From assembly GCF_058153355.1 (NCBI RefSeq), contig NZ_CM177019.1: a stretch of DNA of 64,000 nt; one strand, 5' to 3'. A program made the translations under genes and the position numbers. Within the stretch, counting starts at the first letter, position 1. Each line of letters opens with the position of its first letter. Positions 18,135 to 25,141 of this stretch are shown here, piece by piece. The notes under the pieces are model-generated. The model was not told the DNA's origin. It did not search any database and saw nothing but the letters and a program-made list of their open reading frames with translations.

Positions 18135-19109
18135 ATGAAGCCGTCCGTTATCCTCTACAAAGCCTTACCTGATGATTTACTGCAACGCCTGCAAGAGCAT
18201 TTCACCGTTCATCAGGTGGCAAACCTCAGCACACAAACCGTCGAACAAAATGCAGCAATTTTTGCCGAAGCTGAAGGTTTACTGGGTTCAAACGAGAATG
18301 TTGATGCCGCATTGCTGGAAAAAATGCCGAAACTGCGTGCCACATCAACGATCTCCGTCGGCTATGACAATTTTGATGTCGATGCGCTTACCGCCCGAAA
18401 AATTCTGCTGATGCACACACCAACCGTATTAACAGAAACCGTCGCCGATACGCTGATGGCGCTGGTGTTGTCTACCGCTCGTCGGGTTGTGGAGGTAGCA
18501 GAACGGGTAAAAGCAGGCGAATGGACCGCGAGCATAGGCCCGGACTGGTACGGCACTGACGTTCACCATAAAACACTGGGCATTGTCGGGATGGGACGGA
18601 TCGGCATGGCGCTGGCACAACGTGCGCACCTTGGCTTCAACATGCCCATCCTCTATAACGCGCGCCGCCACCATAAAGAAGCAGAAGAACGCTTCAACGC
18701 CCGCTACTGCGATTTGGATACACTGTTACAAGAGTCAGATTTCGTTTGCCTGATCCTGCCGTTAACTGATGAAACGCATCATCTGTTTAGCGCAGAACAA
18801 TTCGCCAAAATGAAATCCTCCGCCATTTTCATTAATGCCGGACGTGGTCCAGTGGTTGACGAAAATGCACTGATTGCAGCATTGCAGAAAGGGGAAATTC
18901 ACGCTGCCGGGCTGGATGTATTCGAACAAGAGCCACTGCCCGTAGATTCTCCGTTGCTCTCAATGGCCAACGTCGTCGCCGTACCGCATATTGGTTCTGC
19001 CACCCATGAGACGCGTTATGGCATGGCCGCCTGCGCCGTGGATAATTTGATTAATGCGTTACAGGGAAAAGTTGAGAAGAACTGTGTGAATCCGCACGTC
19101 GCGGAATAA
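18135..19109 (+). CDS. ghrB: glyoxylate/hydroxypyruvate reductase B (2-ketogluconate reductase)
   Basis: ORF 18123-19109; start MKPSVILYK at ATG 18135 gives 324 aa; D-2-hydroxyacid dehydrogenase NAD-binding motif GIVGMGRIG. Confidence 0.9.
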
Positions 19110-19124
19110 CCGCGACTGCGGGAA

Positions 19125-19160
19125 GTAAAGCCCGATAATCGCCCGGGCTTTTACTCTTTA
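19125..19160. terminator. bidirectional terminator between convergent ghrB and yiaF
   Basis: Hairpin aaagcccgataatcgcccgggcttt with flanking T/A runs. Confidence 0.5.
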
Positions 19161-19868
19161 TTGGGTTGCAGTGACTGCTGTAGTCCAGGCCTGATTAAAC
19201 GCCTGATGCTGTGCCGGTAATGGCGCAATCAGTTTGTTATATTCACTTGCCTGCTGCGAAGTCGGGAACTGGATGCCATTTGCGACAAAACTCACCTGAG
19301 TACCTTGCTGAGCAATGTAGTCTCCAACCATCACCAGTTGTTGCGTGAAAGTTTGTGCCGCCGGAATCAACGGTTGCAAAGCATCAGCTGGCGTCGTTAC
19401 CACTTTGGTGAATGCCTGATCAAAGACCGGTTTCAGGTCATCGCTCTGTTTTAGCGCAGAGTGCGCAGCATCGGCCTGCAACTTCGCATTTTGCAACTGT
19501 TGCGCCAGTACGCCCAGAGAACCGTTCATTTCACGCAGTGGGCCGCTTTGCGTAACGTAATCCTGCGGTACGCGAATTGCGTTAACGCTGTCTACAACCG
19601 GGCGCAGACCGGAATCCATCGCCTGATTCACCTGCTGTGAATAACCATACAGAATCGCGTAATCAGAGACAAAAGGACCAAACTGTTTTTTCTGATCGGC
19701 AGTCAGGGTTGGTAGACGTTCACCGCTACGCATCACTGTATTCTGCAGGAAGTCGATAAACGCTTTACGCTGATCGCCTTCTTTATCAAAACACCCACTC
19801 AGGCTAACTACCATTAATAACGCCGCAAGAGGCGCAAACCAGCGAGAGCAGGACTTTCCTGTCGCCAT
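19158..19868 (-). CDS. yiaF: DUF3053 lipoprotein YiaF
   Basis: ORF 19158-19988; start MATGKSCSRWF at internal ATG gives 236 aa; lipobox LSGC. Confidence 0.85.
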   Translation of the reverse strand: MATGKSCSRWFAPLAALLMVVSLSGCFDKEGDQRKAFIDFLQNTVMRSGERLPTLTADQKKQFGPFVSDYAILYGYSQQVNQAMDSGLRPVVDSVNAIRVPQDYVTQSGPLREMNGSLGVLAQQLQNAKLQADAAHSALKQSDDLKPVFDQAFTKVVTTPADALQPLIPAAQTFTQQLVMVGDYIAQQGTQVSFVANGIQFPTSQQASEYNKLIAPLPAQHQAFNQAWTTAVTATQ

Positions 19869-20301
19869 TTTCTTACTCCTTTCACCCAAAAAAAGCGCAC
19901 AACGACACACGCGTGTCTGACGTGACAAGGATAGTCCAGGACAGGCTTGCAGGATACCCTTTCTACGTAATCTTCCTGGTAAAATCATGGAGAAAATGAA
20001 ACAAGGTTAATTTGTTGTTTCATTGTTAAAAAATGATAGTGCCGTTGCTTTTTTTGTAGCCAGAGATTTACGCCTTCTCAGAACGTTAGATTTTCGAAAT
20101 CTTTACAAACCGGGAGTGGTAAGAGATATATCGGCATTTATCAGATCGTTAGGTGGCTATAAGTCACGCTAAATGACTGGCTGAATCGAATCATAGCCAG
20201 AGCATGCCCTGACTACACCCCGCTGTGTCTGTTTTTCCCGACTATTCTTAATGAGCTTCGATGCAATTCACGATCCCGCAGTGTGATTTGAGGAGTTTTC
20301 A

Positions 20302-20592
20302 ATGGAATATAAAGATCCCATGCATGAGCTGTTGAGCAGCCTGGAACAGATTGTTTTTAAAGATGAAACGCAGAAGATTACTCTGACGCATAGAACAACG
20401 TCCTGTACCGAGATTGAGCAGTTACGTAAAGGTACGGGGTTAAAAATCGATGATTTCGCTCGGGTTTTGGGCGTTTCCGTCGCCATGGTAAAGGAATGGG
20501 AATCCCGACGCGTTAAGCCTTCAAGTGCCGAACTAAAATTGATGCGTCTGATTCAAGCTAACCCAGCGTTAAGTAAGCAGTTGATGGAATAG
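20302..20592 (+). CDS. yiaG: putative HTH (XRE-like) transcriptional regulator YiaG
   Basis: 96 aa; helix-turn-helix region LRKGTGLKIDDFARVLGVSVAMVKEWE. Confidence 0.85.
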   Translation: MEYKDPMHELLSSLEQIVFKDETQKITLTHRTTSCTEIEQLRKGTGLKIDDFARVLGVSVAMVKEWESRRVKPSSAELKLMRLIQANPALSKQLME

Positions 20593-20699
20593 ACTTTTAT
20601 CCACTTTATTGCTGTTTACGGTCCTGATGACAGGACCGTTTTCCAACCGATTAATCATAAATATGAAAAATAATTGTTGCATCACCCGCCAATGCGTGG

Positions 20700-20872
20700 C
20701 TTAATGCACATCAACGGTTTGACGTACAGACCATTAAAGCAGTGTAGTAAGGCAAGTCCCTTCAAGAGTTATCGTTGATACCCCTCGTAGTGCATTTCCT
20801 TTAACGCTTCAAAATCTGTAAAGCACGCCATATCGCCGAAAGGCACATTTAAATTATTAAAGGTAATACACT
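20700..20872 (+). promoter_or_regulatory. cspA promoter and long 5' UTR (cold-box leader)
   Basis: Region immediately upstream of cspA ATG; known about 160-nt leader in E. coli; motifs not individually mapped. Confidence 0.5.
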
Positions 20873-21085
20873 ATGTCCGGTAAAATGACTGGTATCGTAA
20901 AATGGTTCAACGCTGACAAAGGCTTCGGCTTCATCACTCCTGACGATGGCTCTAAAGACGTGTTCGTACACTTCTCTGCTATCCAGAACGATGGTTACAA
21001 ATCTCTGGACGAAGGTCAGAAAGTGTCCTTCACCATCGAAAGCGGCGCTAAAGGCCCAGCAGCTGGTAACGTAACCAGCCTGTAA
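20873..21085 (+). CDS. cspA: major cold shock protein CspA
   Basis: 70 aa, [21 protein letters not shown]...; RNP1/RNP2 motifs. Confidence 0.97.
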
Positions 21086-21111
21086 TCTCTGCTTAAAAGC
21101 ACAGAATCTAA

Positions 21112-21141
21112 GATCCCTGCCAAATGGCGGGGATTTTTTTA
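21112..21141 (+). terminator. cspA intrinsic terminator
   Basis: Hairpin atccctgccaaatggcgggga followed by ttttttt. Confidence 0.65.
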
Positions 21142-21273
21142 TTTGTTTATTCAGGAAATGAATAATCGTTCGCGTAATAAAATCTATTATTATTTTTGTG
21201 AAGAATAAATTTGGGTGCAATGAGAATGCGCAACGCCGTAAGAAAGGCGGGAATAACTTCCCGCCGAAGACTC

Positions 21274-21426
21274 TTACTCTTTCAATTTGCAGGCTAAAAA
21301 CGCCGCCAGCTCATAATTCTCCTGTTTAATATGCAATTCACACAGTGAATCTCTTATCATCCAGGTGAAAAATAAAAGCGTGAAACAAATCACTATTAAA
21401 GAAAGTAATCTATATTTCTGCGGCAT
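21274..21426 (-). CDS. hokA: Hok-family type I toxin HokA
   Basis: 50 aa MPQKYRLLSLIVICFTLLFFTWMIRDSLCELHIKQENYELAAFLACKLKE; single TM; the ORF track extends it upstream in-frame. Confidence 0.85.
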   Translation of the reverse strand: MPQKYRLLSLIVICFTLLFFTWMIRDSLCELHIKQENYELAAFLACKLKE

Positions 21427-21703
21427 TCCCAGCCTCCTGTGTTGATTTCCAACGAGTAAGAGGCTAACCTTATGGTGTTCAGGCATAGGGTAGCCTCACT
21501 TTGATTTATAGTCAGGTGGGGCTTTTCTCTGTCTGCCTTTCGGTGAATACCTGAGACAAACAGTCTCAAGCACCCGTGGCTATTCTAGCTTAATAAGTTC
21601 TTTTCTTCTCCTTGATATAATCCTAAAAAAATCTCATAAAATTAATATATGAGACAATCTTTATTCAGCAGAAGATTATTAAAGGTTGCTCTATTATTTA
21701 GCG

Positions 21704-21731
21704 ATAAAAAAGCCTGCCAGATGGCAGGCTT
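21704..21731 (-). terminator. glyQS operon intrinsic terminator
   Basis: Hairpin gcctgccagatggcaggc immediately after glyS stop with a T-run on the minus strand. Confidence 0.65.
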
Positions 21732-21747
21732 TTTAATAACGACGTTA

Positions 21748-23817
21748 TTACTGCAACAGCGAAATATCCGCAACTCGCAGGAATAATTCGCGCAGTTTCT
21801 CCAGCATGGTAAGACGGTTGATTCGCAATTCTTTGTCATCAACCATGACCATCACTTTATCGAAGAAGGCATCAACCGGTTCACGCAGCTCAGCCAGTTC
21901 GACCAGCGCATCCTGGTAACGACCTTCAGCAAAGTACGGCTCTAGCTTGTCACGTAGCACCACAACCTGCATCGCCAGTTTAATTTCTTCCGGCTCTTTC
22001 AGAGTAGAGGCATTCACGCGGTCGCTCAGCACTTCGTCAGATTTCGCCAGAATGTTAGATACACGCTTGTTCGCCGCCGCCAGTGCTGCAGCTGCATCCA
22101 GGGTACGGAAGTGCGATACCGCTTTCATTCGGGCATCGAAATCAGCCGGACGAGTCGGACGACGCGCCAGTACCGCCTGGATGGTGTCAACGGTGTAACC
22201 TTCGTCCTGATACCAGGCGCGGAAGCGACCGAGCATAAAGTCGATAACATCATCAACCACGTTGGCATTAGTCAGCTTATCGCCATACAGACGCACTGCT
22301 TCTTCGGTCAGGGTTTGCAGGTCAAGATTGAGGTTCTTCTCAACGATAATACGCAGCACGCCAAGTGCGGCACGACGCAACGCAAACGGGTCTTTGTCGC
22401 CTTTCGGATGCTGGCCGATACCGAAGATACCCGCCAGAGTATCCATCTTGTCAGCTATCGCCAGCGCACAGGCTACCGGGTTAGACGGCAGGTCATCACC
22501 GGCAAAGCGCGGCTGATACTGCTCGTTCAGCGCCACTGCGACATCTTCCGCTTCACCATCGTGACGCGCGTAGTGCATACCCATAACGCCCTGAGTGTCG
22601 GTGAACTCGAAGACCATGTTAGTCATCAGGTCACACTTAGACAGCAGGCCCGCACGGGTGGCATGATTCACGTCAGCGCCAATCTGTTCAGCAATCCAGC
22701 CAGCCAGCGCCTGAATGCGGTCAGTTTTGTCGCGCAGCGTACCCAGTTGTTGCTGGAACAGCACGGTTTGCAGGCGCGGCAGGTTATCTTCCAGACGTTT
22801 TTTACGGTCGGTATTGAAGAAGAACTCGGCATCCGCCAGACGTGGACGAACGACTTTCTCGTTACCAGAGATAATTTGCTGCGGATCTTTCGATTCGATA
22901 TTGGCAACGAAGATAAAGTTCGGCAGCAGTTTGCCGTCGTTCGCATACACCGGGAAGTATTTCTGGTCACCTTTCATGGTGTAAACCAGCGCTTCAGACG
23001 GCACCGCGAGGAATTTCTCTTCGAATTTTGCGGTCAGCACAACCGGCCATTCCACCAGCGAAGCGACTTCTTCCAACAGGCTTTCGCTTAAGTCAGCGTT
23101 ACCGCCAATCTTACGCGCCGCTTCTTCGGCATCGGCTTTAATCTTCGCCTTACGTTCTTCGTAATCGGCGATGACTTTCCCGCGCTCACGCAGAATTTCC
23201 GGATACTGATCAGCATTGTCGATAGTGAATTCCGGCTCGCCCATAAAGCGGTGGCCGCGAATCACGCGATCGGACTGAATGCCCAGAATGGTTGCCGGAA
23301 TGACTTTGTCGCCCAGCAGCAGGGTCACGGTGTGCACCGGACGCACGAAGTGCACGTCGCTTGCACCCCAACGCATCAGTTTCGGGATCGGCAGTTTCGC
23401 CAGCGAAGTCGCAACCATATTCGGCAACAGTGCTTCAGTGCTTTCGCCCTTCACGTGGGCGCGATACAGCAGCCATTCGCCTTTATCGGTAGTCAGACGC
23501 TCAGCCTGGTCAACGGTAATACCGCAACCACGCGCCCAGCCTTCTGCCGCTTTGCTCGGTTTGCCTTCAGCGTCGAACGCCTGGGCAATCGCCGGGCCGC
23601 GTTTTTCGATTTCACGATCCGGTTGTGCTTCCGCCAGGTTAGCTACTTTCAGCGCCAGACGACGCGGAGCAGCAAACCATTGAACGGTGCCATGTGCGAG
23701 GCCAGCGTTATCCAGCTCCGCAGTAAAGTTCGCAGCAAAGGACTCAGCCAGGCTGCGCAGTGCTTTTGGTGGCAGCTCTTCAGTGCCGATTTCCACCAGA
23801 AAAGTTTTCTCAGACAT
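21748..23817 (-). CDS. glyS: glycine--tRNA ligase beta subunit
   Basis: 689 aa; downstream of glyQ in operon. Confidence 0.95.
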
Positions 23818-23826
23818 AGCCGCCTC

Positions 23827-24738
23827 TTACTTATCTTTGTTGCACATCGGGAAGCCGAGGGCTTCACGGGAAGCGTAGTATGCTTCTGCCACTGCTTTGG
23901 TCAGGGTGCGAATGCGCAGAATATAGCGCTGACGCTCAGTGACGGAGATGGCTTTACGCGCATCCAGCAGGTTGAAGCTGTGGGCGGCTTTCAGAATACG
24001 CTCGTAGGCTGGCAGCGGCAGCGGATTTTCCAGCGCCAGCAGCTGCTGCGCTTCTTTCTCGTATTGCTCGAAGCAGGTGAACAGGAAGTCCACATCCGCG
24101 TATTCGAAGTTGTAAGTGGACTGCTCCACTTCGTTCTGATGGAACACGTCGCCGTAGGTGGTTTTACCCAGCGGGCCGTCGCTCCAGACCAGGTCGTAAA
24201 CGCTGTCTACGCCCTGAATGTACATTGCCAGACGTTCCAGACCGTAGGTGATCTCGCCGGTAACCGGTTTACACTCCAGACCACCAACCTGCTGGAAGTA
24301 AGTGAACTGCGTCACTTCCATGCCGTTCAGCCACACTTCCCAGCCCAGCCCCCAGGCACCCAAAGTCGGGTTTTCCCAGTTATCTTCCACGAAACGGATA
24401 TCGTGGATAGTCGGGTCCATGCCCAGCTCTTTCAGAGAACCAAGGTACAGCTCCTGAATATTGTCCGGCGATGGCTTAATGACCACCTGGAACTGATAGT
24501 AGTGCTGTAAACGGTTGGGGTTTTCGCCGTAGCGACCATCGGTCGGGCGACGAGAAGGCTGAACATAAGCAGCCGCCATCGGTTCTGGCCCCAGCGCGCG
24601 CAGACAGGTCATTGGGTGAGAGGTTCCCGCGCCGACTTCCATGTCCAATGGTTGAACAATGGTGCAGCCCTGGCGAGCCCAGTAATCCTGTAAGGTCAGG
24701 ATCAAGCCCTGGAAGGTCCTGGTATCAAACTTTTGCAT
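23827..24738 (-). CDS. glyQ: glycine--tRNA ligase alpha subunit
   Basis: 303 aa, [25 protein letters not shown]... Confidence 0.95.
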
Positions 24739-24832
24739 ATTATTTCGTGCTGGATACGTGTGGATTTAAAGGAAGGGATCAGTATACCCGCTGGATGGAA
24801 GATATACAGTACGAAACGGGAAAAAGCAGGGC

Positions 24833-25141
24833 TTAACGCATGGAAAGATGCAAAAAATGGCCATCCGCGTCAAAAGAACAGACAAACTGCTCTTTCCGGA
24901 AGGTATAACCACGCATTTCGTAGCTTCCCTGGAACTGTTCGAAGGCGGTGACGTCGATTTTTTGCTCGCCGGTGTTATAACGTTTTGCCGCCTGATCCTT
25001 GCATAACGCTTCCATATTCAACGAACGCAGAGGATCAACCTTTACCCGTTGTGCTTTCTGCACGGGTGGCGGTGTAGAACAACCCACTAGCGCCATAAGC
25101 ACTATAAGCGCCATTGCCGGAAAGAAAGAGTTCATCATCAT
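24833..25141 (-). CDS. ysaB: small lipoprotein YsaB
   Basis: About 100 aa with signal peptide and lipobox LVGCS; exact start uncertain. Confidence 0.7.
   Translation of the reverse strand: MMMNSFFPAMALIVLMALVGCSTPPPVQKAQRVKVDPLRSLNMEALCKDQAAKRYNTGEQKIDVTAFEQFQGSYEMRGYTFRKEQFVCSFDADGHFLHLSMR

Follow-up and report, generated by a model that had tools for sequence, protein, structure and literature searches.

The mechanism of hok/sok toxin-antitoxin systems has been described for plasmid R1, where the mok reading frame has a regulatory role (PMC9841398). The hok loci on the chromosome of E. coli K-12 are inactivated by IS elements that are absent from wild-type strains, according to Pedersen & Gerdes (1999) as cited in PMC7337300 and PMC7232551, and the latter text also mentions an IS-free hokA in the AIEC strain NRG857c. 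Pedersen & Gerdes (1999, Mol Microbiol 32:1090) worked on the IS-free hokA/sokA locus of E. coli C, as cited in PMC3562002. According to a preprint that cites the same study (bioRxiv 10.1101/2025.08.07.668861), this locus, the regulatory core of which is identical to the one described below, did not mediate post-segregational killing and did not respond to rifampicin by activation.

The locus described here is located between cspA and glyS in a stretch of 64,000 nucleotides of contig NZ_CM177019.1, referred to below as the window. Every element of an R1-type hok/sok locus is present in the window, at the corresponding position and with the corresponding predicted pairing, and IS150 is absent. 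Considering the predicted RNA structures together with the sequence, we estimate at roughly 85% the probability that the region is an uninterrupted chromosomal hokA/mokA/sokA type I toxin-antitoxin locus, which would be expected to work like R1 hok/sok.

Organization of the hokA locus

The hokA coding sequence (21274-21426, minus strand), taken from the list of open reading frames, encodes a protein of 50 residues, MPQKYRLLSLIVICFTLLFFTWMIRDSLCELHIKQENYELAAFLACKLKE. The protein matches the Pfam family HOK_GEF (PF01848) with 77 bits (cutoff 22) and the NCBIfam HokA equivalog NF007290 with 129.5 bits (cutoff 89), which identifies the frame as a Hok/Gef toxin of about 50 residues, and the HokA of strain AF19 (annotated WP_001135731.1), when translated, has the same sequence. 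Upstream on the plus strand lies cspA (20873-21085), with a match to the cspA thermoregulator (Rfam RF01766) that spans 20713-21140. On the other side the stop codon of glyS is located at 21748 on the minus strand, so that the gap between the hokA ATG and glyS measures 321 bp (21427-21747), in agreement with the contiguous stretch of about 320 bp claimed in the preliminary description. The glyS terminator hairpin (21707-21734, AAAAAGCCTGCCATCTGGCAGGCTTTTTT) would insulate the hokA promoter from glyQS read-through. Sub-threshold Rfam matches are found on both strands at this hairpin; those between 21641 and 21847 (STnc370, STnc540, leader peptides, istR and others) are driven by the terminator and were dismissed as chance.

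The hok locus of the IncFII plasmid pMTY1886 was used as the R1-type plasmid comparator; its Hok protein is 100% identical to that of R1. In the window a mokA frame of 70 codons (21274-21486, minus strand) extends hokA in frame on the N-terminal side and shares the stop codon with it. The mok and hok start codons are 60 nt apart, compared to 57 nt in the plasmid comparator, and the two genes are in frame in both, which bears out the earlier suggestion that the upstream extension is mok-like; by the same comparison, the idea that an in-frame mok is something unusual was rejected. The overlapping upstream frame has its own Shine-Dalgarno (SD) sequence, GAGG (21494-21497, minus strand), 7 nt 5′ of the mok ATG (21486) and within the segment that is deleted in K-12. 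The hokA SD sequence, GGAGG (21433-21437, minus strand), was read directly and corresponds to GGGGG in E. coli C. By homology with R1, the translation of hok would be coupled to that of mok.

In AF19 and p11B a deletion of 1 nt just 5′ of the hokA ATG (equivalent to approximately 21427) puts mok out of frame and shortens it to 29 codons, while hokA is left intact. For this reason the mok extension is not conserved as a protein, and the C-terminal sequence of Mok is evidently dispensable in natural alleles. On the opposite strand, a small open reading frame (21211-21297, plus strand) overlaps the 3′ end of hokA as well as the fbi element and the 3′ stem-loop of the hokA mRNA; it corresponds to ysaE (b4793) of K-12 and is annotated as 'hypothetical protein' in other genomes.

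Elements and predicted folding of the hokA mRNA

The 5′ leader of the hokA mRNA (21424-21575, minus strand; 5′ end placed at G21575) comprises the tac stem, the complement of the Sok terminator hairpin, the antisense-target hairpin and the hok SD sequence and AUG. Rfam RF01794 aligns with this region over the full model (1-157), from 21575 to 21424, at 124 bits (E=2.4e-29; gathering score 59). The alignment runs in the direction of hokA and reaches as far as the AUG of that gene, in keeping with a conserved hok leader structure. Although RF01794 is named 'sok antitoxin', it begins at the 5′ end of the hok mRNA on the sense strand of hokA. From its strand and its end at the AUG it follows that the model represents the hok mRNA leader in the tac-stem form and not the antisense Sok RNA, and its use without regard to the strand would put 'sok' on the wrong strand.

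The translational activator element tac (21564-21575, minus strand) reads 5′ GGGUGCUUGAGA, and GGGTGCTTGAG at the putative mRNA 5′ end (21575) aligns with GGCGCTTGAG in the plasmid locus. A candidate hokA promoter has the -10 hexamer TAGAAT (21582-21587, minus strand), 6 nt 5′ of the presumed +1 and at a position homologous to the TATGAT that precedes GGCGCTTGAG in the R1-type locus. Its -35 region is poor, without a recognisable hexamer, and the promoter is not called by the consensus scan. The upstream complementary box ucb, with the anti-SD sequence AAGCCCC, is located at 21518-21524 (minus strand). Downstream of the hokA stop codon, a stem-loop with a terminator-like match (21246-21265, minus strand) corresponds in the alignment to GGCGGGCGCAGGCCCGCCUUUU of the plasmid locus, and it is followed by the fold-back inhibitory element fbi (21213-21225, minus strand; UCUCAUUGCACCC), within which CTCATTGCACCC corresponds to CTGAAGCGCC of the plasmid locus. 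The cspA terminator hairpin (21110-21137), found by the terminator scan and at the end of the RF01766 match, faces hokA and is likely to define the 3′ end of the full-length hokA mRNA; no other G+C-rich hairpin was found downstream of fbi.

For folding, the putative full-length hokA RNA was taken to run from 21575 to 21100 (476 nt). In its minimum free energy (MFE) structure nucleotides 1-12 pair with 21213-21225, with pair probabilities of 0.97-1.0, giving the predicted closure of the full-length mRNA by 5′ tac and 3′ fbi. For the isolated tac/fbi duplex the energy is -18.9 kcal/mol, and among 2000 shuffled 3′ UTRs only 7 attain this value. As a positive control, the plasmid hok mRNA (IncFII), folded likewise, closes via its known tac/fbi pairing. 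In the same full-length fold AGCCCCAC, which holds ucb (21524-21518), pairs with GUGAGGCU, which holds the mok SD sequence. In RNAs that end before fbi, tac is predicted to switch its partner to ucb, and in a nascent RNA of 100 nt tac is predicted to be sequestered in a 5′ metastable hairpin. Both tac/ucb pairing after 3′ truncation and ucb/mok-SD pairing in the full-length form are thus predicted by the folds; the MFE structure of the truncated RNA does not exactly give the canonical target hairpin, but the covariance model RF01794 does. The closed, open and metastable states seen in the window folds are those described for the R1 hok mRNA (PMC9841398).

The sokA antisense gene

The sokA promoter is located on the plus strand (21442-21470) and consists of the -35 hexamer TTGATT (21442-21447), a 17-nt spacer and the -10 hexamer TAACCT (21465-21470). 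Base for base, its position corresponds in the alignment to that of TTGCGC-17-TATCCT, the antisense-strand promoter of the R1-type locus. Each of the two sok promoters shares 7 of 12 positions with the consensus, which is below the threshold of the scan, and both promoters of the window, that of hokA and that of sokA, were missed by the sigma-70 consensus scan. Because the functional sok promoter of R1 is equally far from the consensus, the miss was not counted against the locus.

The predicted SokA antisense RNA (plus strand, about 21477-21532) has a length of approximately 56 nt, with a 5′ end that was placed from the position of the promoter. It would comprise a single-stranded 5′ tail (21477-21491), complementary to the mok start region, a terminator hairpin (21492-21523) and a U-rich tail to 21532. 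The hairpin is followed by CUUUUCUCUGU and corresponds to the terminator hairpin of the plasmid Sok. The remnant of the K-12 sokA pseudogene (3722077-3722111, 35 nt) maps to 21498-21532 of the window, and therefore the 3′ end of SokA is fixed and the RNA is placed at about 21477-21532. At the sequence level the window thus has a cis-encoded antisense Sok gene with promoter, 5′ tail and terminator hairpin. The preliminary description had correctly expected the antisense RNA on the plus strand, but its range of 21430-21520 has to be shifted by about 45 nt at the 5′ end and about 12 nt at the 3′ end; that range takes in the sok promoter and stops some 12 nt short of the predicted SokA 3′ end at 21532.

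The alleles of O157:H7 and WP4-S18 carry 6-7 substitutions within 14 nt (21476-21489), over the mok start and the SokA 5′ tail, compared to a difference of about 3-4% in the remainder of the locus. The N-terminus of Mok in these alleles is MYRHH or MHRHH instead of MPEHH. This cluster of substitutions could be the result of gene conversion, or could represent a diverged antisense specificity.

In the alignment with the R1-type hok/sok locus, mok, fbi, tac, ucb, the sok promoter and the sok terminator were all located, and a search by alignment for missing or mutated regulatory elements found none. The intact hok/sok-type type I locus that had been suspected is therefore supported as far as sequence and predicted structure go, with every element present and folding as expected.

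IS150 insertions in K-12 and other E. coli genomes

In the record of K-12 MG1655 the gene order is cspA, ysaE, hokA, mokA pseudogene, IS150 (insJ/insK), sokA pseudogene and glyS. In a BLAST comparison with this record the window aligns as two collinear blocks (20601-21458 and 21498-22020; 98.3% and 96.6% identical), which in K-12 are parted by the 1443-bp IS150. The left K-12 junction reads ...CCAACGAGTA directly followed by TGTACTG, and the right junction reads ...CAGTACA followed by a single A and ACTTTGATTT. The insertion is located between 21458 and 21459 and is accompanied by a deletion of 38-39 bp, such that the segment 21459-21497 of the window is replaced by IS150. With this segment K-12 has lost the -10 hexamer of sok, the 5′ end of Sok and both the SD sequence and the ATG of mok. 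Across 21458-21498 the window is uninterrupted, and it does not have a hokA disrupted by IS150 as in K-12, so that the claim that the element lies between hokA and glyS in K-12 and is absent here is borne out by the alignment. The hokA/mokA/sokA genes of MG1655 (b4455/b4647/b4614) are orthologous to those of the window, and HokA differs by S37N only. However, the hokA frame of K-12 is cut off from its own promoter and from tac, whereas the window is without such lesions. An annotation of the window should have hokA, mokA and an intact sokA, whereas in K-12 sokA and the truncated remnant of mokA are annotated as pseudogenes.

In other E. coli, for example p11B (NZ_CP103755.1, 3411-4853), IS150 has inserted independently at a second site, 45 bp from that of K-12 and in the opposite orientation. 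This target site (21501-21503; minus-strand AAG, with a duplication of 3 bp) is empty in the window.

The distribution of these forms was surveyed with a query of 671 bp across the locus against 5,426 complete E. coli genomes. A match was obtained in all but one of them (5,425), on the chromosome every time, and in 2,830 of the 5,425 matched genomes (52%) the locus is contiguous and IS-free. The IS-free state is the majority state in E. coli and no peculiarity of the window; in the IS-free loci of six other strains hokA is intact. The K-12-type hokA/IS150 junction is found in 1,659 of the 5,426 genomes. For the junction with IS150 in the opposite orientation the count is at most 1,166 genomes, an upper bound inflated by plasmid matches, and subtraction of the contiguous and K-12-type counts gives approximately 900. 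Taking both types together, about 48% of the complete E. coli genomes have IS150 within this stretch of approximately 50 bp.

Two further observations were made in the course of the survey. The locus at 198309-199372 of NZ_CM132957.1 contains approximately 390 bp of extra sequence (two aligned pieces, 92% coverage), which differs from IS150 and has a 'yidD' annotation under the match. The surrounding 6 kb of the window (19000-25000) are at best 99.0% identical to any of the 5,426 complete E. coli genomes, and with nearly all of them the identity is 95-99%. Since the best match is only 99.0%, the source strain is E. coli-like but not closely represented among those genomes.

Proposed mode of action and alternative explanations

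If the locus of the window works like R1 hok/sok, the hokA mRNA would be transcribed from the weak promoter with the -10 hexamer TAGAAT (21582-21587), starting near 21575 and continuing through hokA to beyond 21213. In the full-length RNA tac (21564-21575) would pair with fbi (21213-21225), and ucb (21518-21524) would sequester the mok SD sequence; as a result of these pairings, the full-length RNA is proposed to be neither translated nor bound by Sok. Slow trimming of the 3′ end to the stem-loop at 21246-21265 would then remove fbi, upon which tac could pair with ucb, freeing the mok SD sequence and start codon (21486) and exposing the antisense target. As long as SokA (about 21477-21532, plus strand) is present, it would pair across the mok start, block the translation of mok and trigger cleavage of the duplex. 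With mok translation blocked in this way, the coupled translation of hokA is proposed to be blocked too. Upon loss of SokA, Mok and Hok would be translated and the membrane toxin of 50 residues would be made.

Although the locus is intact by sequence and predicted structure, its native activity is doubtful or conditional, because E. coli C, with the same regulatory core, gave no post-segregational killing. The published evidence on an allele with this core is mostly negative with respect to activity. It is conceivable, at somewhat under even odds in our estimate, that the locus is physiologically silent despite its intact sequence. In that case its mRNA would be made and processed, but under native conditions the translation of hokA would never attain toxic levels, and the locus would persist as a near-neutral relic instead of a working toxin-antitoxin module. 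The absence of post-segregational killing and of rifampicin activation for the IS-free hokA of E. coli C, as given in secondary accounts of Pedersen & Gerdes (1999), agrees with such a silent state, as do the identity of the regulatory core in the window and in E. coli C, the poor -35 region of the hokA promoter and the poor in vitro translation of chromosomal hok mRNAs that is reported in PMC7337300. On the other hand, the elements and the reading frame are free of lesions across divergent E. coli alleles, which is not expected of a neutral relic, overexpressed HokA peptide is toxic according to the literature, and hok loci of the ECOR strains are described as active by Faridani et al. (2006). 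Moreover, the presence of IS150 in the regulatory leader in about 48% of the genomes could reflect selection against an active toxin. One reading of this kind, which we consider unlikely, is that the IS-free allele is natively active and that the two IS150 insertions 45 bp apart record repeated selection for silencing, or else a strong IS150 hot spot that results from the structure of the leader; they could equally be two old events that were inherited clonally.

Two other explanations concern the window allele and the mok frame. An inactivating point mutation specific to this strain might be sought in the A at 21601, in the spacer of the hokA promoter, which is found in the window alone, with a C in nine other aligned alleles (eight and E. 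coli C). This position, however, is in the promoter spacer and not in a hexamer; tac, ucb, fbi, the mok SD sequence and ATG, and the sok promoter and RNA are the same as in E. coli C; the hokA frame has its full length; and the hok SD sequence of the window (GGAGG) is nearer to the consensus than that of E. coli C (GGGGG). Such a mutation is very improbable, and by the element-by-element comparison with E. coli C an inactivating private substitution was ruled out as far as sequence can do so. It is even harder to believe that the frame of 70 residues, being in frame with hokA and sharing its stop codon, is a real product, i.e., a longer Hok-like protein, rather than the regulatory mok frame. 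The R1-type locus has the same in-frame layout with a regulatory mok (PMC9841398), hokA has a strong SD sequence of its own (GGAGG), and the deletion in AF19 and p11B truncates mok with hokA left intact.

The uninterrupted hokA/mokA/sokA locus of the window is real but ordinary, because about half of the sequenced E. coli carry the IS-free form, which was described in 1999; it is the ordinary majority form and was already known. On the role of chromosomal hok loci the window adds nothing beyond the literature and the thousands of genomes available. To find out what chromosomal hok/sok loci do, one should turn to strains with an IS-free locus and not to K-12.

Comparison with E. coli C and plasmid R1

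The closest described counterpart is the locus of E. coli C (NZ_CP020543.1, 346016-346690; hokA 346202-346354; glyS ending at 346677), which is likewise without an IS element. It has the same position between cspA and glyS, the same gene order and the same orientation, with a hokA-glyS gap of 322 bp compared to 321 bp in the window. The two loci differ at 24 positions in 675 bp. They are identical across the regulatory core (21442-21575), in fbi and in the 3′ hairpin, with no differences in tac, ucb, the mok SD sequence and ATG, the sok promoter, the Sok RNA, the 3′ hairpin and fbi. The differences comprise five bases in the reading frame, one in the hok SD sequence and one in the promoter spacer (21601), the remainder being located in flanking non-coding sequence; the HokA proteins differ by three residues, that of E. 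coli C being ...KQGSYELAAFLACNLKE.

With the hok/mok/sok (parB) locus of R1 and the IncF plasmids the window shares the order of promoter, tac, ucb, mok SD sequence and ATG, antisense sok, hok SD sequence, Hok/Gef frame, 3′ stem-loop and fbi, as well as an in-frame mok and the predicted tac/fbi closure. In contrast to R1, the window locus is chromosomal instead of plasmid-borne and lacks a dedicated strong terminator directly after fbi. R1 hok/sok mediates post-segregational killing, whereas hokA reportedly does not. Outside the conserved motifs the nucleotide similarity is low, and the hokA leader is approximately 20 nt shorter. Yet the tac and fbi elements, which have changed on both sides, are still complementary, pairing as GGCGC with GCGCC in R1 and as GGGUGC with GCACCC in the window.
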